A stretch of 20,000 nt of DNA from an uncultured virus (IMG/VR IMGVR_UViG_3300021405_000011) (lineage: Duplodnaviria; Heunggongvirae; Uroviricota; Caudoviricetes), in the IMG/VR virus record IMGVR_UViG_3300021405_000011. One strand, 5' to 3'. Positions 7,939 through 18,888 of the stretch are shown piece after piece. The notes under the pieces are model-generated. The model was given only the letters and a program-made list of their open reading frames with translations, was not told the DNA's origin and ran no database searches. Every line of letters starts with the position of its first letter. Position 1 is the stretch's first letter. A program made the position numbers and the translations under genes.

Positions 7939-8168
7939 TAATCGTCAACCGCATCCGCCCCCGCTTCTCCCATCAACTCAATGGCCCTCGCAATCCCGCC
8001 ACCTGAGATAATGGACTCCCCTATCCCCACACCAAAATGGATAAGGACCTTCATCAAAGCGGTCCCAGCCACTACCGCCGCCGCAAGAACGAAGTACCAC
8101 AACAAGAAACGGTACAGTTTCTTGTTCATTCTAATGACTTTATACTTTGCCTTGAACTTTGTCCCCAT
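7935..8168 (-). CDS. Small membrane protein
   Basis: Hydrophobic FLLWYFVLAAAVVAGTALMKVLIHFGVGI. Confidence 0.65.
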   Translation of the reverse strand: MGTKFKAKYKVIRMNKKLYRFLLWYFVLAAAVVAGTALMKVLIHFGVGIGESIISGGGIARAIELMGEAGADAVDDY

Positions 8169-8295
8169 TCTCCCTTTTACCTCTCTCCCTCTCCACGAGA
8201 GTCGAAATGGTGAACACTATCTCTCCCACAACCATAGCAATCACCGTTATCCTCGATACCAGTTCTTCCAGTAGCCCCGGTATTCCTTCATTCAT
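8140..8295 (-). CDS. 51-aa probable membrane microprotein
   Basis: MNEGIPGLLEELVSRITVIAMVVGEIVFTISTLVERERGK...; fills the operon gap. Confidence 0.45.
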   Translation of the reverse strand: MNEGIPGLLEELVSRITVIAMVVGEIVFTISTLVERERGKRENGDKVQGKV

Positions 8296-8518
8296 GTCCA
8301 ATAGCCACATGTTTCCCTCCCTTCGGTATGGGCTCCTCTACGTCCCATGTCGGGTACTTTTCAAATAGCCGACTGGCAGGCGGCAACATAATCGCCACAT
8401 TCTCATGGTCCGCCCTCAAGAAAGCGTCCGCAAACGCTCTCAGAAAGTGTCCACTCTCATGTGGATGACCATTGACCACGTTACGTGCCCAACGGTAGAC
8501 GACATATTCGTTTACCAT
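8288..8518 (-). CDS. Hypothetical phage protein
   Basis: 76 aa, AGGAGG RBS; GHFLRAFADAFLRAD segment. Confidence 0.7.
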   Translation of the reverse strand: MVNEYVVYRWARNVVNGHPHESGHFLRAFADAFLRADHENVAIMLPPASRLFEKYPTWDVEEPIPKGGKHVAIGHE

Positions 8519-8589
8519 TTCACCCTCCTCATAGTGACCGCCAACCCAAAAAAGATAACCGTCACTATCACTAACATATCCATCGGCAT
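8512..8589 (-). CDS. 25-aa membrane microprotein
   Basis: MPMDMLVIVTVIFFGLAVTMRRVKW; its tail carries the next gene's RBS. Confidence 0.55.
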   Translation of the reverse strand: MPMDMLVIVTVIFFGLAVTMRRVKW

Positions 8590-8593
8590 AGGC

Positions 8594-8794
8594 TCACCGG
8601 CTCCTTGCGATTAGGGCACGTTTGGCCTGCTCCAACTGAGCATTCCTCACGTCTCCAATAGGCACGGTCGTATTCCAAACCATACTGCTATCGCGTGTGT
8701 CTACCACGTCCAAATACACACTGTCATTCGGACCTACGATAGTTCGTGTCTGAATATGCTGCCGTGTCTCAAAGTGCGACTTCACTTGTTCCAT
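8594..8794 (-). CDS. Hypothetical protein
   Basis: 66 aa, AGGAGG RBS. Confidence 0.7.
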   Translation of the reverse strand: MEQVKSHFETRQHIQTRTIVGPNDSVYLDVVDTRDSSMVWNTTVPIGDVRNAQLEQAKRALIARSR

Positions 8795-8904
8795 TTTATT
8801 CCTCCTTGTAACCTTTTGTTACATTGATGTACCTATGAATAATCCACATAGGATGCATCCCGACACGGTTAAGATTCACGTCCCTAACCGTGTGAAGCTG
8901 AACC

Positions 8905-9147
8905 CTAAACTGTCTGGGGAACTGTTACCGTCCTACTCGACCTCTCCACATGCGGCCCAAAATACTTGAGATTAACGTTAGGAACGTAGTAGACCGTGTG
9001 CTGCTCATACCCCATCGAATGTCCCAATTGGGTATCAATACACGTAATGATTAACGTATCCGCTTCCGTCCTCCACGTTGTATTGGCCAGAGGGAACAGT
9101 ATGGGCAACCGTCCTATAATCTCTAGCCTCAAAAATTGCTGTTCCAT
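8905..9147 (-). CDS. Hypothetical protein
   Basis: 80 aa, GGGAGAG RBS after module. Confidence 0.7.
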   Translation of the reverse strand: MEQQFLRLEIIGRLPILFPLANTTWRTEADTLIITCIDTQLGHSMGYEQHTVYYVPNVNLKYFGPHVERSSRTVTVPQTV

Positions 9148-9224
9148 CCATCTCTCTCCCGAGTTCCACTATCCATGAGTTAGAACTCCTTAATCTCACT
9201 CTCAACGAATGAGATTACAGCGGT

Positions 9225-9632
9225 CTAACGAATGAATCCCAAATCCATCAATAATCCCATCGGCATGTGACCGGCGTTCTTAGCGATATTGCTATAATTC
9301 CCTATCGCCTTCTTAGCTATCGTGGACTCCGATATCCCCGGCACTATCTCATCCGCGAATTTCCACGCTTCTTTCTCCGCTACCAACGTGTCATTCGCTG
9401 AGGAATGATATCTCCCGCTATTCATCGCCGCCGGGGTCTCTAGTATCCTTCCCACAAAATGCCCCAACTCGTGAGCAAGGACAGCGGGAGTATTATCCTC
9501 TCCCGACCTCTCCTTATCCCCTTTGGGATTCAGGACAATCTTGTAATCTCCCGTCACATTGTCCCTTTTTGTGAAGCTAGACTTAGTGGAATCCTCGTCT
9601 ATCCACACTTCCAACGTTCCCAATTTCCTCAT
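9225..9632 (-). CDS. HExxH zinc metallopeptidase-like protein (ImmA/IrrE-like), paralog 1
   Basis: VLAHELGH plus downstream AEKEAWKFA (candidate third ligand Glu). Confidence 0.75.
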   Translation of the reverse strand: MRKLGTLEVWIDEDSTKSSFTKRDNVTGDYKIVLNPKGDKERSGEDNTPAVLAHELGHFVGRILETPAAMNSGRYHSSANDTLVAEKEAWKFADEIVPGISESTIAKKAIGNYSNIAKNAGHMPMGLLMDLGFIR

Positions 9633-9716
9633 CCATATTCTCCCTTGAGACTCCCTATTCCTCTAGGCGACTCTCCTTAGAGACACTGTTATCCAAACCA
9701 ATGTCCCTACAGCGGG

Positions 9717-10133
9717 TCACTTAAAATTATCACTCGCGTCTTCCATCAACGCATCCGCTCCCCATTCCTTCATCCCCTCCAGAAAGTCATTCATGGGTTC
9801 GGTATACACCGGCCTCTTGACAATCCCCGGTACAATCTTCTCCGAGAATCCCCACGCCTCTTTCTCCGCAGCATATTGCTGACCTAACGTGGTAGTGGGC
9901 AATCCACTCCGTTCAGAGATAGGCGTCCTGAACAAATGCGCCACAACATGCCCCAACTCGTGTGCGAATATGTCTTCGGTATCCTTCCCTGCACTACCAA
10001 ACGCCTTGTCAGCGTTAGGCCGCAGATAAATCTCAAATGTGTTACTGTCCGTCTGCCAATGCGTGTAAGAGCTTCCATCTCCCTTACCCGCATCTTTGTC
10101 CAGGAACACCTTGATTAAAGCTATTTGTTCCAT
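9717..10133 (-). CDS. HExxH zinc metallopeptidase-like protein (ImmA/IrrE-like), paralog 2
   Basis: IFAHELGH plus AEKEAWGFS..IVPGI; start MEQIAL at 10133 after GGGAGA. Confidence 0.75.
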   Translation of the reverse strand: MEQIALIKVFLDKDAGKGDGSSYTHWQTDSNTFEIYLRPNADKAFGSAGKDTEDIFAHELGHVVAHLFRTPISERSGLPTTTLGQQYAAEKEAWGFSEKIVPGIVKRPVYTEPMNDFLEGMKEWGADALMEDASDNFK

Positions 10134-10200
10134 AACTATCTCCCTGAGACATAATGTAAGTCTCATATAGTACACTCGCACTGAATGTACTATCTGTGAA

Positions 10201-10296
10201 TCACATATATATCCGGTAATACGCCAACGCAGCGTACCCAGCGACTAACCACCAAAACACTCGTTTCAAAATAGACTCAGCACGTTCCGTCGTCAT
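10201..10296 (-). CDS. 31-aa membrane microprotein
   Basis: GGAGG RBS; MTTERAESILKRVFWWLVAGYAALAYYRIYM. Confidence 0.6.
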   Translation of the reverse strand: MTTERAESILKRVFWWLVAGYAALAYYRIYM

Positions 10297-10615
10297 GGCA
10301 ATTCCTCCCTATCCATTCCGTCCCCACATAAGCCGGACTAGGATAATCCCGTTTAGGCGAATCACTAGGATTCACCCAACCATGGTTAACCTCATGTGTC
10401 ACCTGATGAACTGGACACGCCGCTTGCATCCCTACAATCGTTGGATACAATCGTCTCGCCACAAACTCCGCGTAGAACTCCGGCCACGAGACATTCTCCC
10501 TATTAATCTCATCCACTGAACGTCCCTCAGCCTTCATGTTCTCCACAAGGTTATGATGAGCCTTCCCAGCCTCAATCAACGCCGACTCGATAGCCAGCTT
10601 CAAACTAGTTTCCAT
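10277..10615 (-). CDS. Hypothetical protein
   Basis: 112 aa, GGGAGA RBS after module. Confidence 0.7.
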   Translation of the reverse strand: METSLKLAIESALIEAGKAHHNLVENMKAEGRSVDEINRENVSWPEFYAEFVARRLYPTIVGMQAACPVHQVTHEVNHGWVNPSDSPKRDYPSPAYVGTEWIGRNCHDDGTC

Positions 10616-10765
10616 ATCTATCTCCCTCTAGACTCCCTACAAAGCGAGTCTCCCCACGTCCCCTCACTTGGACAGCCATACAGGCGACGGCATGAATAAT
10701 CGTCCCGTTATTACTAGCGCTCACTGATATGGCCATCCAAGAGAAGGGACGTGTAGCGAATCACT

Positions 10766-10924
10766 TTAACTGTGAAAGTTATCCCTATAGGCGTCGCGGT
10801 AATCCACCGCATCGTCCACGTCCTCCACGTCCCCACTCCCATCGTCATCCGGGTCCGGTCTAGCAGAGCGTAATCTCTCAATCACTCTCTCCCACCACCC
10901 CTTACTTGCTTCCGTATAACTCAT
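10766..10924 (-). CDS. Small acidic protein
   Basis: Asp-rich C-terminus; start likely MSYTEA (10924) after GAGG. Confidence 0.55.
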   Translation of the reverse strand: MSYTEASKGWWERVIERLRSARPDPDDDGSGDVEDVDDAVDYRDAYRDNFHS

Positions 10925-11039
10925 AGACCTCAATCCCTTCCGTTCCATACATGAGAATCACGCCTATCACCGATACCGCTATTCCTCCCAGTACCAGCAA
11001 CGCGCTACCCTCCAATATGGAGACTATCCATGTTGGCAT
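10902..11039 (-). CDS. 45-aa membrane microprotein
   Basis: GGGAGAG RBS after module; MPTWIVSILEGSALLVLGGIAVSVIGVILMYGTEGIEVYELYGSK. Confidence 0.65.
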   Translation of the reverse strand: MPTWIVSILEGSALLVLGGIAVSVIGVILMYGTEGIEVYELYGSK

Positions 11040-11115
11040 ATACTCTCCCGAATGTCACCACGAAATATAAGTAACACTCATACTACCCACTAATTTCTAA
11101 TGGGCAGTCTGCGGA

Positions 11116-11430
11116 TTACTTAACCGTATTCGTCAATTTATCCAGAGTGTGACCTTCAAAGTAACGGTCACGTTCAATCTTGAGTCCCCCAGGTCCCCTC
11201 ACTGACTCCAATTCAGACAGCAGAAAGTTCCCCAGTTCCTTTTCGTGTCCTTCCACCAATCCAAAGAACTCCCAATCCCCATTGACCTTATTCCCCTCCA
11301 CCGCGTACCACGTCCAATAACTCCACGGTGTGAAGAATTTAACTATCACTGGGACAGGATTCACCTTCTCAGTGGAATACAGCGGAGACTTGAGTAACTT
11401 ACTCTCAATCTCCTTGGTAATCATTTGCAT
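11116..11430 (-). CDS. DUF2958-like protein
   Basis: VKFFTPWSYWTWYAVE...FFGLVEGHEKELGNFLLSELESVRGPGGLKIERDRYF; start MQMIT at 11430. Confidence 0.8.
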   Translation of the reverse strand: MQMITKEIESKLLKSPLYSTEKVNPVPVIVKFFTPWSYWTWYAVEGNKVNGDWEFFGLVEGHEKELGNFLLSELESVRGPGGLKIERDRYFEGHTLDKLTNTVK

Positions 11431-11494
11431 AATCACTCTCCCGAGACTAAGTAAGTCCCACAGTGAGCACTCTCCCCGAATGCCCACGAGCGAA

Positions 11495-11767
11495 TCACTT
11501 ATTCGCAATATAACTCGCACATACTGGAGCATGTAACTCCGTTGTAGCGTCACCCTCGTTTGCCAGAAGATAGTAATACCTCTCCCCATCCCCTAAACTC
11601 TCTTGGATATACACTGGCTTCCCTTGTTTAGCATGTTCGATAGCCAAGTTAAGGGCAATCTTATCCCTCTTCCAAGCCACCTTATCCAAGGTTAGAGACT
11701 TAACCTTCCTATACTCCCGGCGACACGCTAATAACTCCTCTAACGTCGCCTGTCTCATTCCTTCCAC
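11495..11767 (-). CDS. Hypothetical protein
   Basis: 90 aa, GGGAGG RBS after module. Confidence 0.7.
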   Translation of the reverse strand: MEGMRQATLEELLACRREYRKVKSLTLDKVAWKRDKIALNLAIEHAKQGKPVYIQESLGDGERYYYLLANEGDATTELHAPVCASYIANK

Positions 11768-11838
11768 TACTCACCTCCCATCACCCTAACGTAAGTGATT
11801 TCAGAGAGGCACTGTCTCCAGTGCCCTACTGGAATAAC

Positions 11839-12060
11839 TTACCTCTTGCGCGGTCCCAAATCTTCCCACGGTCCAAACTTCCCCGCACCGGGAAGAATCT
11901 CCCGCCGCCAGTTGTGATTGTCACAACTCACGGTTTCTTGATATCTCACATCCTCCGCAATCTTCGGAACAGGCCGCTCTGATAATTCCTTCAACGCGGC
12001 CACAACTCCCGCCGACTGCAATTGCTCCAATTTCTCCGTCGTTGCTGTCTTCGTTTCCAT
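11839..12060 (-). CDS. Hypothetical protein
   Basis: 73 aa, AGGAG RBS after module. Confidence 0.7.
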   Translation of the reverse strand: METKTATTEKLEQLQSAGVVAALKELSERPVPKIAEDVRYQETVSCDNHNWRREILPGAGKFGPWEDLGPRKR

Positions 12061-12136
12061 AATTCTCCTTGATACTTATAGAGTAAGTATCGTGATGCCC
12101 ACTATCTCTAATGGGCATCCCACTAATCACTCTCTC

Positions 12137-12304
12137 TTACTCCCCGAGAGGGTCCTCATCCGTCCCATTGTCCGGGTCACTCAGGTACCGATTTAGCGCA
12201 TCGTTAAACTGCGCCTGCTGTTCCGGCGTCGGTTGCGTCTCCGCGTGTGCTCCCTGAGCCGCTTTCGCTGCCTGAGCCGTGGTATGCTTGCGAGTCTTTG
12301 TCAT
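12137..12304 (-). CDS. Small hypothetical protein
   Basis: Start MTKTRKH at 12304 after GGAG; upstream part of the track ORF is module sequence. Confidence 0.6.
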   Translation of the reverse strand: MTKTRKHTTAQAAKAAQGAHAETQPTPEQQAQFNDALNRYLSDPDNGTDEDPLGE

Positions 12305-12384
12305 AGTGTCTCCACTCACTCTGTCCACATTGCCTAATGAACATTGTGTGTCCCACTTTCGGACCCCAAATGGGACACCCACTG

Positions 12385-12476
12385 TCCACTATTCCCATAC
12401 CAGTTAGGTGACGCTCACCTCCACGTTGCCGGGTATAACTGGCTAGAACCCGGCGAGTTAAATGGGTATCAGTGGA
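12385..12476 (-). ncRNA. Putative structured RNA: three-way junction with possible pseudoknot
   Basis: Closing stem 12385-12398/12462-12476; hairpins 12406-12420 and 12428-12454; loop TAACTGG (12436-12442) complementary to CCAGTTA (12400-12406). Confidence 0.5.
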
Positions 12477-12479
12477 AAC

Positions 12480-12749
12480 TTAATCGCTAACGTGGTGAGG
12501 ATTCCTACTTCCCCTCTGCACTTTCCCCTGTCCATTTTGCGGCGCTTTAATCAACCCATCCCGCATTAACCGGACAGCCGTCCTACCGTAACTCCCCTGC
12601 AATTGCCACACCATCCCAGTATCCACAAGATGCTGGAATAACGTGACAATCGCATCCTCATCCAATTCCCCACTCTCATAGGCCATAATCTGACCTACGG
12701 TGTCATAGGGTTTGAATATCTGAGGGAGTTTGCTTACTTGTCTCGCCAT
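12480..12749 (-). CDS. Hypothetical phage protein
   Basis: IMAYESGEL...LFQHLVDTGMVWQLQGSYGRTA pattern; GGGAGAG RBS. Confidence 0.75.
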   Translation of the reverse strand: MARQVSKLPQIFKPYDTVGQIMAYESGELDEDAIVTLFQHLVDTGMVWQLQGSYGRTAVRLMRDGLIKAPQNGQGKVQRGSRNPHHVSD

Positions 12750-12984
12750 ATCACTCTCCCTTTGTTCTCTCCTTGAATGGCAGTAAGTAGACCAACAATA
12801 GGAACAAAACTGTTCCCATCGCTACTCTCCCCACTGTCTCAAGGAAGAACACTAACGAGAGTGTGTCACTATCGCCCACTCTCATGGTTGTCTCCCCGCG
12901 TCCCCAACTATCCTAACTAGGTGCGCGATGCATCACATTACCCGTAACTATGAATAATGTGATGACTCTCGCATCTACTTGGAT

Positions 12985-13299
12985 TCAACTTACGTTTGGC
13001 TCAATAGTGTCCATTAGACTAGGTTCCCCATGTCCAGCCAGCATCCTAACCTCAGCGTAATCACGAGAGTAATCCCTATCACTCCCGCAACATTGAGTCA
13101 GTTTATGGAGATAAAGCGCGACGATTGGATGAGTGTTAACCCATGTAGTACTCTCACCTATTCTGTGCGCCTCATTCCACAGAGTAGACAGCGCACGGTT
13201 AAGACTCCCAACAATCCCAGAGACATTAACGCCATCTTGCACGTTAAGGCATTCCTGAGCTTCATCGGCCACCGTACGTGTATTAGGCTCCCATGTCAT
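12985..13299 (-). CDS. Hypothetical protein
   Basis: 104 aa, GGAGG RBS. Confidence 0.7.
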   Translation of the reverse strand: MTWEPNTRTVADEAQECLNVQDGVNVSGIVGSLNRALSTLWNEAHRIGESTTWVNTHPIVALYLHKLTQCCGSDRDYSRDYAEVRMLAGHGEPSLMDTIEPNVS

Positions 13300-13301
13300 A
13301 A

Positions 13302-13379
13302 TTAGTTATCCTCCCTCCTCATTAACTCACTAGTAATCAACATGAGGAAGAGGAAACTAATAACTACAAACGTTGTCAT
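13302..13379 (-). CDS. 25-aa membrane microprotein
   Basis: GGGAGAG RBS; MTTFVVISFLFLMLITSELMRREDN. Confidence 0.6.
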   Translation of the reverse strand: MTTFVVISFLFLMLITSELMRREDN

Positions 13380-13523
13380 AGTATCCACTCTCCCAGAGCA
13401 ACCAACGAATATGCTCTGCGTCCGTTACAGTCGTAATCTGTGAATCCCTAGTAAGATTCATTCCCCATTCGGTACTCGACTAGCAGAATACCGACAGACC
13501 ACTGTAACGGATGCACGGCATAT

Positions 13524-13640
13524 TCACCGTGTGCGTAACTTCGTCCAATACCCAAACCCCATTTTCGTAAACGCTTTCCCCATAGCCAGTAATATCACCA
13601 TAACGAAAACGAGTATGGACAATACTTTACTGTTCATCAT
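13524..13640 (-). CDS. 38-aa membrane microprotein
   Basis: GGAGG RBS; MMNSKVLSILVFVMVILLAMGKAFTKMGFGYWTKLRTR. Confidence 0.6.
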   Translation of the reverse strand: MMNSKVLSILVFVMVILLAMGKAFTKMGFGYWTKLRTR

Positions 13641-13719
13641 TCCTACACCCTCCCAACACCCAACCTACTCCTCCCAAAACTATCAACGTGATGTAGAGGA
13701 GTATCACGATATTCAACAT
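13627..13719 (-). CDS. 30-aa membrane microprotein
   Basis: GAGG RBS; MLNIVILLYITLIVLGGVGWVLGGCRNDEQ. Confidence 0.6.
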   Translation of the reverse strand: MLNIVILLYITLIVLGGVGWVLGGCRNDEQ

Positions 13720-13880
13720 TGGATTTACCTCAGAGCAAGAATACGCTCTATTAGAGGAGTTAATGTCTAACTAGAATGAAATAATACAGAACTGGTAAAC
13801 TCACAATCCTATTCCCACTAACTCCGCTAACAGAGGATACTCACTTGAGTACGCTCTATTAAGGGATTGCCTATGAGAAA

Positions 13881-14084
13881 CTACTTGACCTTGATTACCA
13901 CACCGTTTTCCATGGTCGCCTGAGCGTACCACGTGTGCGGTGCTGGATAATGCGGACCTTCCACGTATTCAATCCCATTATCCTTCGGACTGCCCAAACC
14001 CGGTGCGTACAACCTAACCTTCGCTCCAGACTCGACAGCCAAACGAAATTGCTTCTTTGTTTTATAGTTCTCTACGGTATACAT
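13881..14084 (-). CDS. Small hypothetical phage protein enclosed by inverted repeats
   Basis: 67 aa, GGGAGG RBS; EGPHYPAPHTWYA segment. Confidence 0.75.
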   Translation of the reverse strand: MYTVENYKTKKQFRLAVESGAKVRLYAPGLGSPKDNGIEYVEGPHYPAPHTWYAQATMENGVVIKVK

Positions 14085-14130
14085 GGTCTAGTTCCTCCCA
14101 TGCAATCCCTTAACAGAACATACTTCTAAT

Positions 14131-14365
14131 GGAGTGTGTCCTGTAAACTGGATAACTCGCCAAACATCCATTAAGCTGTCTACCCTAATAGCTATGGACT
14201 CTTAGACTTTTGCTGTACTGGCCTGTAGAGCTTGTTAGCGTCAATACAGGCAATCTTCACCTATCAGTACAGTTTGCTATCCAGTTAACAGAACACACTC
14301 CCACACTCCCATATTCGGTATAACCGTTATCCAATGGACTCGGTTAATCCTACTTAGAGAGTGTG
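14131..14365 (-). ncRNA. Putative large structured intergenic RNA
   Basis: 24-nt imperfect closing stem 14131-14154/14278-14301 with nested stems CTGTACTG/CAGTACAG and GCCTGTA/TACAGGC; further stem 14302-14365. Confidence 0.55.
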
Positions 14366-14397
14366 GAATTATGTTTGTGCGGCATGCGACGCGAGAG

Positions 14398-14778
14398 TTA
14401 ACTCGCGTGTAACTCTTCCCGGTATTCCTTCGCTGTCCTACTGAAAACATCGGCCATATGACCGTCGCCAAGCAAAACTTGCTCAGCGGCCATCGTTACC
14501 CCAACGAAATATACCGGATTGTAAGTCTTCCCTTGCCGAATGCCGCGCAACATACTGACAGCATCCTCAAGAATAGCCTTACTCTCTTGACTCAGTACCA
14601 GAATTGCTTGCATGGAATGGTCTCCCTTAACAGGATTTAACTCCCCCGTCCCATGCCGCCAAAACTTGAATTGAGCTATCTGTTTGCGCCGCGTCTTACT
14701 AGCCTTTCGCCGTCCCACAATAGGGACGATACTGTCAATGCACGCGAAGGATGCGGCAACCGTCTTTTCATTCTGCAT
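14398..14778 (-). CDS. Hypothetical protein, first gene of the leftward array (true start may be 14613)
   Basis: Track ORF; best RBS (AAGGGAG) precedes MQAILV at 14613. Confidence 0.55.
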   Translation of the reverse strand: MQNEKTVAASFACIDSIVPIVGRRKASKTRRKQIAQFKFWRHGTGELNPVKGDHSMQAILVLSQESKAILEDAVSMLRGIRQGKTYNPVYFVGVTMAAEQVLLGDGHMADVFSRTAKEYREELHAS

Positions 14779-14784
14779 GGTTTA

Positions 14785-15083
14785 GTCCGTTTTGCTACGG
14801 ACGCCTTGTCCCCCCGAATGCTAGTGACAGACTGCCACTAGGCCGGAGACTACATCGGACCATACGAGTATCTGTTGCGCTCAATTATCACTAGGGCATT
14901 TATGACTACCTTTAGCCTAGCGCTCAGTTTGGCGTGCTACCCTACGGTCCCTTATCCATTGACTAGCAGGTTGCTTCGGGAGACTGCATTCTCAGACTGA
15001 GAACCTAACTACCCCATCCCTGCCCGCTATCCCATGACCTGCTCGGAACGCGGATTGCATCCGGGACGATACTCTCACAAGGC
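14785..15083. ncRNA. Putative structured leader or ncRNA
   Basis: No ORF; GCCTTGT/ACAAGGC closing pair (14803/15077) with nested CTAGTGA/TCACTAG, GTCCC/GGGAC, AGCAGGT/ACCTGCT. Confidence 0.4.
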
Positions 15084-15300
15084 CAAACTACTGCTATGGC
15101 ATGTAGCAAGACACTATCCACAGTTAACTTGCTGATTCTAATAGGTATGCCCGACACTCACTAGGTAAAATCGCCATAGCAATCTAAACGAGTTAACTCC
15201 CACTAGCGTCTAACCTACTGATTCTAATACACTTCATTACTATAGCGAATTTACATAGTGACTGTAATATCTACTCTCAAGAATAACGATATTCTAACGA

Positions 15301-15309
15301 TTATCCACA
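15301..15309 (+). promoter_or_regulatory. Consensus DnaA box
   Basis: TTATCCACA exact; 1-mismatch CTATCCACA at 15114-15122. Confidence 0.35.
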
Positions 15310-15452
15310 CTCTCACACGTCCATTGTTATCAGTGACTTACAGAAACCTTGCACTGGGATAGGTAGCAATTGTCAAGTTATTGATTCGATTGGAGTTACT
15401 CATTAGTTTAACAACGTCTAAAGTTTTGCTGTAGCGCCTCTAATTGAGAGTT

Positions 15453-15600
15453 TAGTATTCACAGTACTCATAGTACTAGATGCACTACCCTCAGTACGTT
15501 CAGAACTCACAGGACCATCAGTACCATTAGTACTAGCTAGTACGCTCGTTACTCTTAGTAGTACACTAACTATCGGTACTCACAGTACCTACAGTACTAT
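15453..15600. repeat. Degenerate 9-bp tandem repeat (consensus near CAGTACTCA)
   Basis: AGTAC-like cores at 15454, 15463, 15472, 15493, 15502, 15511, 15520, 15529, 15539, 15548, 15557, 15575, 15584, 15593. Confidence 0.8.
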
Positions 15601-15777
15601 CACTAACGTTAGTTTATACTTTAGTTAATCTCACCATCACCTGTCCTGTCACCCTCAGCCGCCCTCAGTGTAGGGGTACATAAGCCAGGTAGGGGTCGAG
15701 ACAGGAACAGTCTCCTCCAAGTAATTTTTCCCCTAAAATTAGTGTAACTACGAATATTTCCATCAGCGGTAATAGTA

Positions 15778-15990
15778 CTATTCACTTGGATAGTCACGTT
15801 TGATGATGCGACGGGTGTAGATATCTATTAGCCGAGAACGCTCAAGGAACGTATGTGGATAGAGGTCAGCCGCTCGTCCACGGCAGAATCTCAAAGCGTG
15901 AGTGAGACGTTGGATACGGTTGAGGAGGGTGGAAAGAGGACAAGTTTCCCAAGTTTCATTAGGGTCCTTGGGGATGACCTCATCGACCAT
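15778..15990 (-). CDS. Hypothetical protein
   Basis: 70 aa, TGATG overlap with upstream gene. Confidence 0.55.
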   Translation of the reverse strand: MVDEVIPKDPNETWETCPLSTLLNRIQRLTHALRFCRGRAADLYPHTFLERSRLIDIYTRRIIKRDYPSE

Positions 15991-16325
15991 CAGATTTCTA
16001 GACGGTCCAGCAGGTCACCAATACGGTTAATCTGGAATTGTAGACGGTTGGAATTCCTATGGACCACAGCCACTAAATGCACTGGATGCTCCTGTTGTTT
16101 ATCCGCTCCTGGATTACTTGGGGATGGTTGAGTGGGCCGCAATGCCGGAGCCAATCTCCGTTCGAGCTGATTCACGGCATTATCCAAATCCTGCATCAAC
16201 GCCTCGTGAGCCAACATGGCCTCGGTTACGAGGGGACTGCGTTCTGTTGGCATGTTTTGGGGACTGCCTAAGCCACTACCCGCGGTGCCACCAACCTGAC
16301 CTGCTCTACTGAGTTCACCGTACAT
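15990..16325 (-). CDS. Coiled-coil hypothetical protein
   Basis: Start MYGELS at 16325 after AGGAGAG; two amphipathic helical stretches. Confidence 0.65.
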   Translation of the reverse strand: MYGELSRAGQVGGTAGSGLGSPQNMPTERSPLVTEAMLAHEALMQDLDNAVNQLERRLAPALRPTQPSPSNPGADKQQEHPVHLVAVVHRNSNRLQFQINRIGDLLDRLEI

Positions 16326-16409
16326 ATCCACTCTCCTTGGGTTCCCGTCAAGAACAATGGTATAGTCCAATTTTAGCGTTATACTGTCAACAGGAAAGTG
16401 AGATAAATT

Positions 16410-16799
16410 ATGGCCAAGACTGATGCCGAAAAGGCAGGTTACTTCGCTCCCGGTGCTGGTCTTACCGAAGCGGACTTCGCTCTCGTCAAACAGGCCATGG
16501 CTGGCGACCATGACGTGGACCTCACGGAAATTAACTTCCGCAAGCTCCTCTCCAGTTGGGCTCATAATCTCGGTACCATCGTCGAGTCCAAGGATAAGGA
16601 TGGTAACACTTACCGTCATCGTGTGGTGTCCAATCAGGACCATCAATTAAGGATGCTCGCAGCTAAGTGTCTAACCGCGTTATTCATCGCTAAGAGGAAG
16701 GACGAACCCCCCGCTCCCAAGACTCTCGTGGTGGATGGGATGGAAGAGGGGATGGCTAATTTGACGGGGATGCCGGTTAACCAGAAAGAGCCAATGTAA
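16410..16799 (+). CDS. Probable terminase small subunit (by position)
   Basis: 129 aa, first gene of the rightward module upstream of TerL; no diagnostic motif recognised. Confidence 0.5.
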   Translation: MAKTDAEKAGYFAPGAGLTEADFALVKQAMAGDHDVDLTEINFRKLLSSWAHNLGTIVESKDKDGNTYRHRVVSNQDHQLRMLAAKCLTALFIAKRKDEPPAPKTLVVDGMEEGMANLTGMPVNQKEPM

Positions 16800-16951
16800 T
16801 GGCCCTCTCCTTCCATCTCTTAGGCAAACTATTCGGCTTCGAGATTCGTCAATATTCCGATATCGGGTGGAAAATGATGCAAGAGTTAGTAGTCCAAATC
16901 GGCGCACGTCCACTCGGCCCGCAGATTAAAGTAACAGTAAGTAAGAGGTAA
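16799..16951 (+). CDS. 50-aa hypothetical protein
   Basis: TAATG overlap; MALSFHLLGKLFGFEIRQYSDIGWKMMQELVVQIGARPLGPQIKVTVSKR. Confidence 0.55.
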   Translation: MALSFHLLGKLFGFEIRQYSDIGWKMMQELVVQIGARPLGPQIKVTVSKR

Positions 16952-16957
16952 CCAACA

Positions 16958-17254
16958 ATGATGCCAATGCCCCCACCGATGCCCGGAGGAATGGGTGGTG
17001 GTCCCATTCTCCGCCAGCCAATGCAGGGAACTTTACCTCCTCCACCTCCCGCAGCACCCACTCCCGCACCTGGTCCAACTATGGGCGGTATACCCCCCAA
17101 CCGTGGTACCCTCCACCCCGGTCCCATGGGCGGCGGCCCCATTATGCATGAGGGTGGTCCTCTTACTAACTCTGGTGTACTTACTCCGCAACGTCCTTTC
17201 TCTCATATTGGCAATCCCAGAGCGACTAATCCCATCAGTACACCCATGTTATAG
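16958..17254 (+). CDS. Pro/Gly/Met-rich low-complexity protein
   Basis: GAGG RBS; 98 aa, probably disordered. Confidence 0.65.
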   Translation: MMPMPPPMPGGMGGGPILRQPMQGTLPPPPPAAPTPAPGPTMGGIPPNRGTLHPGPMGGGPIMHEGGPLTNSGVLTPQRPFSHIGNPRATNPISTPML

Positions 17255-17268
17255 TACCCACGAATAAT

Positions 17269-18888
17269 ATGCTCACCCCTCAACTCCTCCCAAGCCAGCG
17301 TGAGTGGATATACGCCACCGAACAGGAGAGAATGTTGATGGGGGGATGGGGGGTAGGTAAGACCAGAACTCTCTGTCTAGCTGGCTTCCTCCTCTCCCAC
17401 TACGTCCCCGATAACTTTGGATTCATAGGTAGAGCCAGTGGTAAGGACCTCCACACTACCACTATCAAAACTTTCTTCGACGAAATTTGTCCTCCTGAAT
17501 ATATCGTCGGTAAGCCCAAACGTGTAGGTCAGTCTGGATTACTGGTGACTATCAAATGTGACCCTAACCAATTCCCCGGTGCCACCAGTCAGGTCTATTT
17601 TGACTACATCATAGATAGGGTTACCGGTCGTTCCCACCTTGCTGGCGGTAATTGGGGATGGTTCGGCGTGGACCAAGTGGAGGAAATCAACCGTCCGGAT
17701 TGGGTCAAGTTAAAGGGCCGTCTACGCCGGATGACCAAAGACTGGAAGACTGGTCGCCGTATTCCCATTAAGACTCACGCCTTGGGAGTGGGTAACCAGC
17801 AGGGCCACGACTGGATATTCGAGGACTTCTACGAGAGTGGCGATTACATATTTGACCTCAAGAATGAGCCTAAACGCTTCTGGAAATCCGTTCATACCAC
17901 CCTCCCCAAACTAACCGGTGAATCCAAGGATTCCGCTCGTTTTGGTATCATCGTCCGCAGTGAGGAGAATGCCATCAGTAATGGCGGCTTCTCTCCCGAC
18001 GAATATTTTGCCAGCCAACGTAGGTCCAATCCCCCAGAGTTCGTGGCCCGTTACATGGACGGGTCCTTCGACGATTTCAGCGGCAAAATCTACGCCGATT
18101 ACAACATCCACAGCGTCCACAATATCGAGCCATTTGTTATACCTGACCACTGGCCATGGGGATGTTGTATTGACCCTGGTGGCTCTGTCCCTTGGGGCGT
18201 TGGCGTGTGGAGAATGGACGAGGATGGAAACAAGATACTCGTAGACGACGCCCAACAGCTCTACGCCCCCCGTATCAATCCCAACCACGTCGTCAACTGG
18301 CTCAAAAAACACACTCCAGTAGATAACTGTAAGTATATCGTCGATTACCAAAACGTCCCGGTGATGATTATCTTCCAGGAAGCCGGTATCTACTGTGAAG
18401 CGGCGATGAAGGATAAGAAGGTGGGATTAAACGGTGCCATCAACGAGATGTTCGTGAATCCTGGTATCAAATTACCTCCTTGGTACGAGGCCACACAACC
18501 TAAAGTTAGATACGAAAAGTTTAAGGATTTAGGGTCACCAAGGGTATTTAGTTTCAACACTAACAAATGTTGGATGAAGGAACACGATAACTACATCTGG
18601 GACCCCAATAAGAAAAATGAGCCTAAGGATGTCCAACAGGACCATCATTGTGACCAAACTAGATATTGGCTGGCTAGTAAACCTTTGGCTGCCACGCCTA
18701 CCATAATCGACCCCTACCGCTCCATGCGAAAGTTTGACCCCGTATCGGCGGGACATAATGCTAGAGTGGATAAGGAGTTGGAGCGTCACAGGAGATTACA
18801 GGCGAGGGAGTTGGCAGAAGTGGACCCATATGGCGGGGACAGCGGTGGGGATAACAACGTGGATTTTATAGTGGATTACGGTATCTAA
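17269..18888 (+). CDS. terL: Terminase large subunit
   Basis: N-terminal LLPSQ, Walker A GGWGVGKT, Walker B WFGVDQVEE, RYMDGSF, RNase H-like CIDPGG and DHHCDQTRY. Confidence 0.9.
   Translation: MLTPQLLPSQREWIYATEQERMLMGGWGVGKTRTLCLAGFLLSHYVPDNFGFIGRASGKDLHTTTIKTFFDEICPPEYIVGKPKRVGQSGLLVTIKCDPNQFPGATSQVYFDYIIDRVTGRSHLAGGNWGWFGVDQVEEINRPDWVKLKGRLRRMTKDWKTGRRIPIKTHALGVGNQQGHDWIFEDFYESGDYIFDLKNEPKRFWKSVHTTLPKLTGESKDSARFGIIVRSEENAISNGGFSPDEYFASQRRSNPPEFVARYMDGSFDDFSGKIYADYNIHSVHNIEPFVIPDHWPWGCCIDPGGSVPWGVGVWRMDEDGNKILVDDAQQLYAPRINPNHVVNWLKKHTPVDNCKYIVDYQNVPVMIIFQEAGIYCEAAMKDKKVGLNGAINEMFVNPGIKLPPWYEATQPKVRYEKFKDLGSPRVFSFNTNKCWMKEHDNYIWDPNKKNEPKDVQQDHHCDQTRYWLASKPLAATPTIIDPYRSMRKFDPVSAGHNARVDKELERHRRLQARELAEVDPYGGDSGGDNNVDFIVDYGI

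Follow-up and report, generated by a model that had tools for sequence, protein, structure and literature searches.

Ten intercistronic long hairpins in the early operon of an uncultured soil phage as probable T7-type RNase III processing signals

The first genes of an uncultured soil virus assigned to the Caudoviricetes (IMG/VR record IMGVR_UViG_3300021405_000011) are separated by ten copies of a structured intercistronic module, all on the minus (coding) strand between positions 9147 and 13494 of the 20,000-nucleotide stretch analysed here (the window), which corresponds in reverse complement to bases 27896-47895 of a 48.5-kb viral contig. These modules are probably processing signals of the phage T7 type, at which ribonuclease III (RNase III) of the host would cut a polycistronic early mRNA. 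An initial annotation of the DNA had labelled the module a candidate new system, a label that was not upheld, as the element fits a textbook kind, the T7-type RNase III signal; predicted from its structure, it is most likely an RNA processing site of this known kind. The interpretation draws on the structure of the modules, its covariation and strand specificity, its likeness to hairpins of T7 and its match to published determinants of the enzyme. The genes of the module region form the first dozen of a long one-directional operon of small genes, and the modules occupy the gaps of 64-150 nt between them, so that ten are packed into 4.4 kb, nearly one per gene.

The hairpin first described in these gaps (hairpin A) is the upper part of a longer hairpin of about 24 rungs. 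Under the loop, whose length ranges from 4 nt to a long insertion, a variable closing pair is followed by U-A, U.G, A-U and C-G pairs and then by six hypervariable pairs, which together make up an 11-bp helix; beneath it come a mismatch, two pairs, a second mismatch, two further pairs, a third mismatch and finally a lower stem of 6-8 bp. The 16 nt on the 5' side of hairpin A pair with the 24 nt on its 3' side in a single geometry in nine of the ten modules, and these flank duplexes are more stable between cognate strands than between non-cognate ones (mean -7.96 versus -6.18 kcal/mol; p = 0.01 by permutation). Hairpin A is followed by a second hairpin (hairpin B), whose 5' arm and loop are made up of the same bases as the 3' strand of the lower stem, and the long hairpin and hairpin B are therefore mutually exclusive. 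All ten A hairpins of the initial annotation were recovered, with the sequences described, when the gaps were read on the minus strand; what it had overlooked is the lower stem, with the upstream stop codon that it contains and its incompatibility with hairpin B. A covariance model of the long-hairpin structure (R1) was built from six copies of similar length and used in searches with filters off. The modules are listed below with their R1 scores, all coordinates being those of the window.

m1: 9147-9231, minus strand; long hairpin 9176-9231, hairpin A 9191-9217, hairpin B 9161-9188, start codon 9147; 57.1 bits; Shine-Dalgarno (SD) sequence GGGAGAGAG; lower stem holds the upstream stop codon UAG at 9225-9227.
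m2: 9632-9724, minus strand; long hairpin 9663-9724, A 9678-9709, B 9647-9675, start codon 9632; 54.2 bits; stop codon UGA at 9717-9719, in the lower stem.
m3: 10133-10208, minus strand; long hairpin 10152-10208, A 10167-10193, B 10145-10165, start codon 10133; 66.4 bits; its lower stem contains a UGA at 10201-10203, the stop codon of a hidden hydrophobic open reading frame (ORF) of 31 aa at 10201-10296.
m4: 10615-10766, minus strand; A 10655-10753, core CCUU/AGGG, with a loop insertion that forms an extended stem; lower-stem strands at about 10754-10766 and 10640-10654, B 10630-10651, start codon 10615; assigned by folding, not by the model.
m5: 11039-11123, minus strand; long hairpin 11067-11123, A 11082-11108, B 11050-11079, start codon 11039; 68.1 bits; stop codon UAA at 11116-11118, in the lower stem.
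m6: 11430-11502, minus strand; long hairpin 11447-11502, A 11463-11487 (10 bp), B at about 11440-11462, start codon 11430; 54.8 bits; stop codon UGA at 11495-11497, in the lower stem.
m7 (variant): 11767-11842, minus strand; A 11808-11825, core CACU/AGUG (C-G for U.G), followed by a 2x2 loop and three pairs; lower stem GUAAGU/ACUUAC holds the stop codon UAA; B within 11774-11807, start codon GUG at 11767; 16 bits, E 0.088.
m8: 12060-12134, minus strand; long hairpin 12079-12134, A 12094-12119, B 12071-12091, start codon 12060; 63.5 bits; the actual stop codon UAA lies at 12137-12139, just upstream of the hairpin.
m9: 12304-12393, minus strand; long hairpin 12333-12393, A 12348-12378, start codon 12304; 32.4 bits, E 2e-6 (not in the training set); no B-type hairpin and no preceding stop codon.
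m10 (variant): 13379-13523, minus strand; A 13469-13494, core UAUU/AGUA, 9 bp; B 13441-13460 with a UUAC loop; A and B both enclosed by a larger outer stem; followed by a hydrophobic ORF of 25 aa at 13302-13379; assigned by folding, not by the model.

R1 gives its six training copies 54-68 bits and recovers m9 from outside the training set, with m7 reaching 16 bits, and nothing in the remaining 29 kb of the contig exceeds 10.8 bits. Two copies are missed by the model, m4 because of its loop insertion and m10, which has a short stem within a larger fold; folding shows the same parts in both. A covariation check on seven copies and 22 pairs found pairing in 92.7% of 151 cells, compared with 68.5% after shuffling, a value that none of 500 shuffles reached. 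Both sides change in 15 of the 22 pairs of the seven-copy alignment, and sliding the partner strand by 1-3 columns leaves pairing in only 35-50% of cells. It had been claimed that the outer pairs of hairpin A differ between copies and still pair, and the six outer pairs are indeed hypervariable and compensated. The four core pairs are invariant in the seven aligned copies, while the closing pair is C-G, A-U, G-C or U-A. Single (1x1) mismatches occupy three fixed columns, two of which are conserved G.A oppositions (in 5/7 and 6/7 copies). The double-helical extent thus comprises 22 modelled pairs and three mismatches in seven copies, and folding yields the same geometry in m4 and m7. Both the core and the lower stem are more conserved in sequence than pairing demands.

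The structure is specific to the coding strand, as had been proposed: the sense RNA folds more stably than the antisense RNA in all ten regions, and R1 scores of 68, 66 and 64 bits on the sense strand correspond to 27, 27 and 16 bits on the antisense strand of the same loci. Among the modelled pairs there are 120 Watson-Crick, 20 G.U and only 2 A.C cells, so the structure is one of the sense strand and, most likely, of RNA. Counts of the core motif point in the same direction. In the whole 48.5-kb contig, the core CATT..AGTG flanked by at least four pairs matches eight times on the gene-sense strand and never on the other; seven of these matches lie inside the module region, and the eighth is a stray with four flanking pairs only. 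With the exact core and at least five flanking pairs, the window contains seven matches, compared with a mean of 0.043 and a maximum of 1 in 300 dinucleotide shuffles. When flanking pairs are not demanded, the core shows no enrichment (10 observed, 6.56 expected), and the signal is therefore the flanked hairpin, not the motif. A further model match inside a 112-aa gene (10338-10394, minus strand; 22.2 bits, E 0.0016) has a copy of the lower-stem motif, AGTGATTCGCC, and may be either a decayed module or a chance match.

Three copies depart from the common core: 10655-10753 (CCUU/AGGG, with the long loop insertion), 13469-13494 (UAUU/AGUA) and 11808-11825 (CACU/AGUG). The core U.G wobble, described at first as a general property of the module, is kept in nine of the ten copies and is replaced by C-G in the last of these three. 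That the U-A/U.G step is held while adjoining pairs covary, the other part of that description, was seen in both m4 (10655) and m10 (13469). The placement of hairpin B required similar qualification. It follows A after a gap of 0-3 nt in nine of ten modules, the hairpin in that place in m9 not being of the B type, and in m1-m8 (8/10), though not in m9 or m10, only 0-3 nt separate its end from a purine-rich SD. The sequences on the 3' side of hairpin A are purine-rich.

RNase III of Escherichia coli offers a set of published determinants with which these features can be compared. According to the passages cited, the distal box of its substrates consists of a U-A pair followed by a U.G pair with the U on the 5' arm, and the U.G is strictly required, since its replacement by GU costs 50-fold and by AU more than 30-fold (PMC1540722). 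The same account states that significant reactivity needs a helix of at least 11 bp between loop and cut, that the cut is set neither by the sequence nor by the position of the loop, and that internal loops can confine cleavage to one bond, leaving a product-protecting 3' hairpin; for R1.1 of T7 it gives a minimal substrate whose upper stem-loop product is 28 nt long (PMC1540722). The 11-bp helix and the 28-nt product together place the R1.1 cut 13 nt on the 3' side of the loop.

The modules carry the distal box U-A/U.G in 9/10 copies, m7 again having C-G in place of U.G. Hairpin A is 11 bp long in 7/10 (m1-m5, m8 and m9), with 10 bp in m6, 9 bp in m10 and 8+3 bp in m7. A mismatch zone, which is predicted to restrict cutting to one strand, is present below the upper helix. 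When the cut is carried over from R1.1 by model alignment, it falls 2 nt past hairpin A, which in m1-m6 and m8 is 0-1 nt ahead of the base at which pairing in hairpin B begins. Since the predicted cut coincides with the start of B, the downstream mRNA would open with this hairpin.

The likeness to T7 extends to particular sites. Although R1 was built only from copies of the present phage, its search of all T7 beyond the first 399 bases returned four best matches, with 27.5 bits (gene 18/18.5 gap), 24.7 bits (0.4/0.5), 19.5 bits (6.3/6.5) and 17.9 bits (1/1.1). All four are intergenic (E 3e-5 to 6e-3), and every other T7 match has 13.3 bits or less. The gene 1/1.1 gap contains R1.1, a model RNase III substrate in the cited passages of the literature (PMC6121014). 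The top of the hairpin in this gap, CAUUC-loop-GAGUG, is identical to that of m1, m3 and m6, including the U.G pair. The other three gaps (18/18.5, 0.4/0.5 and 6.3/6.5) are presumably those of the RNase III sites R18.5, R0.5 and R6.5 of Dunn and Studier 1983. When folded, gaps of the T7 early region show an upper helix, a loosened zone and a lower stem, followed by the SD, as in the modules, and the 6.3/6.5 match has a lower stem, UAAGUGAU...UUACUU, that is near-identical to module copies. The initial annotation had included a processing nuclease among several candidate readers of the hairpin, and this item of its list has gained strong support, because the conserved U.G is the known distal-box determinant of RNase III and R1 finds four T7 intergenic hairpins, one of them in the R1.1 gap. 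Pieces of these early genes also occur in three soil metatranscriptome runs, which counts in favour of the RNase III interpretation.

A further shared feature concerns the stop codon of the upstream gene. In m1, m2, m3, m5 and m6, five of the seven modelled copies, it lies at model positions 6-8, within the lower stem; the stop codon of m7 is likewise in the lower stem, those of m4 and m8 lie 5-10 nt further upstream, and m9 and m10 do not follow the rule. The stop codon of the upstream gene (0.4, 6.3 or 18) occupies the same model positions in three of the four T7 matches (L232:1027-1082, L233:10300-10376 and L233:28615-28669). Both alternative folds of the module are kept by compensated changes, as is seen when m8 is compared with m3, where the 5' strand of the lower stem and the 5' and 3' arms of B differ in step. 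The unconstrained fold is the long hairpin in 5/10 modules. Hairpin B forms when pairing of the 18 nt upstream of A is prevented, and in m2-m6 and m8 this costs 1.5-3.3 kcal/mol. In most copies the SD is unpaired in both folds. Sequestration of the SD by the freed 3' arm of B was considered and dropped, being seen only in m3, with m7 similar.

On the proposed mechanism, the RNA would first fold as one long irregular hairpin, in which the upper 11-bp helix presents the U-A/U.G distal box beside the loop-closing pair and the mismatch zone and lower stem lie beneath. RNase III would bind this two-turn helix and cut about 13 nt on the 3' side of the loop, hence 2 nt beyond the end of hairpin A; owing to the mismatch zone, the opposite strand would probably stay intact. 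Hairpin A would remain as the end of the upstream mRNA and shield its 3' terminus, while the freed 3' strand of the lower stem would pair anew with the bases that follow it, giving hairpin B. In this way the downstream mRNA would start with a base-paired 5' end immediately before its SD. Hairpins at the 5' terminus and strong ribosome-binding sites are known to stabilise mRNAs, and both A and B may serve to stabilise the products. If this scheme is correct, the early operon of this uncultivated soil phage holds ten RNase III cuts, each predicted with single-nucleotide precision, and the phage would make monocistronic early mRNAs as T7 does. In m1, m3, m5 and m8 the main cut is predicted on the minus strand between positions 9189/9188, 10165/10164, 11080/11079 and 12092/12091, respectively. 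Hairpin B at the predicted cut would then be a natural counterpart of the mRNA insulators of synthetic biology.

A more far-reaching version of this interpretation, which we regard as speculative and rather improbable, is that the modules and the T7 sites form one phage RNA family, shared by unrelated phages and without an Rfam entry, characterised by stop-gated cutting and a post-cut 5' hairpin, two features that are not known to have been described for T7. According to this proposal, the stop codon is fixed in the lower stem so that the terminating ribosome would decide whether the RNase III substrate forms, and the 3' strand of the lower stem would be so designed that, once cut free, it forms a 5'-terminal hairpin adjoining the SD. 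Each unit would act as a "cut-and-cap" insulator, making every early cistron its own stabilised mRNA. The occurrence of a T7-like box and lower stem in a phage unrelated to T7 in recognised genes hints that substrate recognition by its host RNase III resembles that of the E. coli enzyme, and that signals of this kind perhaps spread or persist widely among phages without having been catalogued.

Several considerations weigh against the RNase III interpretation. The alignment used for the covariation check had been fitted to the model, and the R1 training set supplies six of its seven rows; all module copies are paralogues from one genome. The outer four pairs of hairpin A, which correspond to the proximal box, are hypervariable and fit the E. 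coli preferences only in part. The preferences used for comparison were a G-C pair in position 1, A-U or U-A pairs in positions 2-4 and absence of G-C beside the scissile bond; m1 and m3 largely fit them, m8 and m9 have G-C as the outermost pair, and m2 and m5 have G-C or C-G at position 2 or 3. Some copies have a G-C pair beside the predicted cut, which is inhibitory in E. coli. Moreover, m7 lacks the U.G pair, m10 has a 9-bp stem in a larger fold and m9 is without a B-type hairpin. The determinants applied here are those of E. coli, and distal-box preferences may vary among bacteria (PMC1540722). The T7 sites other than R1.1 lack annotation in the RefSeq record, so that their names and places are provisional. 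In the three metatranscriptome runs, as in one DNA run, the early genes are covered by short contigs of low depth, in which joints, variants and transcript ends cannot be read.

In addition, no second genome with the module turned up in searches of phage records, IMG/VR, metagenomes and prokaryote genomes. Comparison of the region with 50,697 phage records by blastn gave no match. A first pattern scan of IMG/VR returned at least 119 single matches, with no real hairpin among the matches listed, and a second, complete scan returned 56 loci, the best with an R1 score of 18.8 bits, without stems. Terminase relatives in IMG/VR amount to four loci, the closest of 54% identity, and the whole 63-kb record of this closest relative is GC-rich, with tightly packed early genes and no module. 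A metagenome scan yielded 23 loci, of which the best is the same phage and the rest are relatives of 61-71% on contigs too short to include the early region; prokaryote genomes contained no terminase relative. Relatives of two cargo genes (23 loci) and of the terminase, 294 kb in total, gave no R1 match. Outside the records searched for the module there are relatives whose terminase is 76% identical, as well as a 72.1-kb contig that belongs to the same phage. An Rfam search of the window at E values up to 1 gave no match to the modules, its two weak matches elsewhere being to ceN28 and to the speF leader.

Among the other explanations, an RNA switch gated by translation seems unlikely. The long hairpin and the fold with A and B would be its two states, which would set downstream expression or gate RNase III, so that it could coexist with processing; a ribosome terminating at the stop codon in the lower stem would melt this stem and let B form, thereby coupling neighbouring cistrons. 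The arrangement suits such a device in that the lower stem and B exclude each other and covary together (as in m8 versus m3), the folds lie only 1.5-3.3 kcal/mol apart in m2-m6 and m8, and the stop codon has one fixed model position in five of seven copies and in three of four T7 matches. A switch with the SD free in both folds of most copies would lack clear on/off logic, though, and the stop codon is not at the fixed position in m4, m8, m9 and m10. The two folds are explained equally well as the states before and after the cut.

It is very unlikely that the core and lower stem are recognised by an RNA-binding protein or nuclease encoded by the phage instead of by host RNase III. Such a reader would account for the conservation of these parts beyond the needs of pairing, and it might be sought among the early proteins, most of which have no known family, or outside a contig that is perhaps partial, the terminase cluster being present on the 72.1-kb contig as well. 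Against it, what is conserved is precisely what characterises RNase III substrates, R1 finds four intergenic hairpins of T7, and a scan of 58 ORFs against Pfam and PHROGs revealed no nuclease or RNA-binding family. A reader of this kind need not be assumed.

The initial annotation had also suggested a recombination site in single-stranded DNA for the shuffling of gene cassettes, analogous to integron attC or to the PeSL elements of T4, and this has come to appear extremely doubtful. Imperfect hairpins, variable in the loop and with mismatches at fixed places, do indeed lie between small genes of the same orientation, and adjacent paralogues of 32% identity each have a module, with m1 and m2 the most alike. 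The 20 G.U cells would be T.G mismatches in DNA, and set against 2 A.C cells they argue for RNA. The scan of 58 ORFs found no integrase, recombinase or HUH enzyme (on a contig that may be partial), relatives of the cargo genes in other viral contigs are without the module (0 matches in 294 kb), and the contigs of the sequencing runs, whose cover is thin, show no joints or deletions at module borders. The conserved parts are also accounted for by the likeness to T7 RNA processing hairpins.

Least credible is a role in transcription, as terminators without a U-tract, attenuators or antitermination sites like nut or put, for which the stable hairpins in intergenic gaps would be an argument. The two-hairpin layout may resemble that of put RNA. 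That these are not intrinsic terminators was already noted at the outset and is borne out: the U-tract is missing, which excludes terminators, and none of the three terminator-like sites called in 8000-17400 lies at a module. Ten terminators in one operon would need ten promoters, and site calling found no promoter-like site at the modules. The conserved feature, furthermore, is an internal helix box and not a loop.

Three further candidates were rejected. DNA hairpin promoters of the N4 kind are disfavoured by a giant ORF without a polymerase match and by pairing of the sense strand with G.U; a promoter inside the module is disfavoured by variable spacing and the lack of promoter-like calls there; and mobile repeats of the REP/RAYT type are disfavoured by the single orientation of all copies and by stems that are hypervariable but compensated. 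The giant ORF exceeds 2125 aa, occupies contig positions 3-6377 (minus strand) and runs off the contig end, and it has no match in Pfam or PHROGs.

The scan of 58 ORFs recognised a terminase, a portal protein, a major head protein and an SU10-type adaptor, and from this set of genes the phage looks like a podovirus. Most genes of the early operon have no recognised function. The 48.5-kb contig may be incomplete, because the cluster of the identical terminase is also represented on the 72.1-kb contig. The window differs from its source contig at two bases, 8099 and 8104, and a metagenome contig of the same phage shows two differences from the window across 12.6 kb. Two adjacent paralogous genes (9225-9632 and 9717-10133, minus strand) share 32% identity and a HELGH motif, and their similarity to zinc peptidases is weak and below cutoff. 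Each has its own module, and the modules that follow them, m1 and m2, are the most alike pair, which suggests that gene and module were duplicated as one unit.

The hidden hydrophobic ORFs at 10201-10296 (31 aa) and 13302-13379 (25 aa), both on the minus strand, begin with MTT, have a good SD each and sit in gaps that seem long. Stable hairpins adjoining an SD occur in three further gaps of the operon (12886-12984, 8795-8904 and 8519-8593, minus strand), without the U-A/U.G core and without the lower-stem motif; beyond 8519 the operon genes are packed and leave no gaps. An abundant RNA maps to about 14427-15080 (minus strand), immediately before the first early gene, whose ATG is at 14613. Its contigs have depths of 31.5, 27.7 and 13.9 in the three metatranscriptome runs, compared with 2-4 for pieces of early genes; their low ends are at 14427, 14648 and 14615, and all extend about 75-80 nt past 15000. 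Nothing in Rfam matches this RNA, whose fold is unremarkable (z = -0.95). Upstream of it, a TTAGAAT-containing motif recurs at 15125-15143 (approximately), 15211-15229 and about 15290 (minus strand), and these repeats may be tandem early promoters with a hexamer resembling a -10 element. An iteron-like array of AGTAC-type repeats spaced by 9 bp (15455-15614) lies between the early operon and the terminase side.

Several known systems resemble the modules to differing degrees. Integron attC sites and T4 PeSL elements are likewise hairpins conserved in structure and variable in sequence that lie between small genes of the same orientation; they act in DNA, through a dedicated recombinase or through recombination of repeats, whereas the modules need G.U pairs and their box matches a determinant of an RNA enzyme. 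In attC the outer core sites are conserved, while in the modules no part varies more than the outer pairs of A. The SAS/ESAS elements of Cluster K mycobacteriophages, in the passages cited, precede many non-structural genes as repeats near the start site, consisting of an inverted repeat with a variable spacer that immediately precedes a conserved start-site sequence; the same source finds little support for a hairpin in the mRNA, with departures from the repeat uncompensated (PMC3203893). Compensation is strong in the modules, and the sequences are unrelated. Bacillus phage SP82 has repeated hairpin sites in its early polycistronic RNA that are cut by the RNase III of its host, B. subtilis, and the cited accounts, in the parts concerned, attribute stabilisation of the downstream RNA to a strong ribosome-binding site near the new 5' end (PMC4838370, PMC7509114). 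This host is Gram-positive, and the likeness is one of description.

From T7 the modules differ in four respects. They number ten within 4.4 kb, nearly one per gene; they have three 1x1 mismatches, two of them G.A, where R1.1 has an asymmetric internal loop of 4/5 nt according to the passages cited (PMC6121014); they have a hairpin B at the predicted cut that adjoins the SD, of which none was seen in the folded T7 gaps; and they belong to a phage that is not T7-like in its recognised genes, with its adaptor of the SU10 type and no T7 RNA polymerase found among the 58 ORFs scanned (Pfam and PHROGs). T7 RNase III signals and modules are alike in being intercistronic and in having an upper helix, about 11 bp long, in which U-A/U.G lies beneath the loop, and the placement of the modules in the gaps of a one-directional early operon resembles that of the RNase III sites in the T7 early region.

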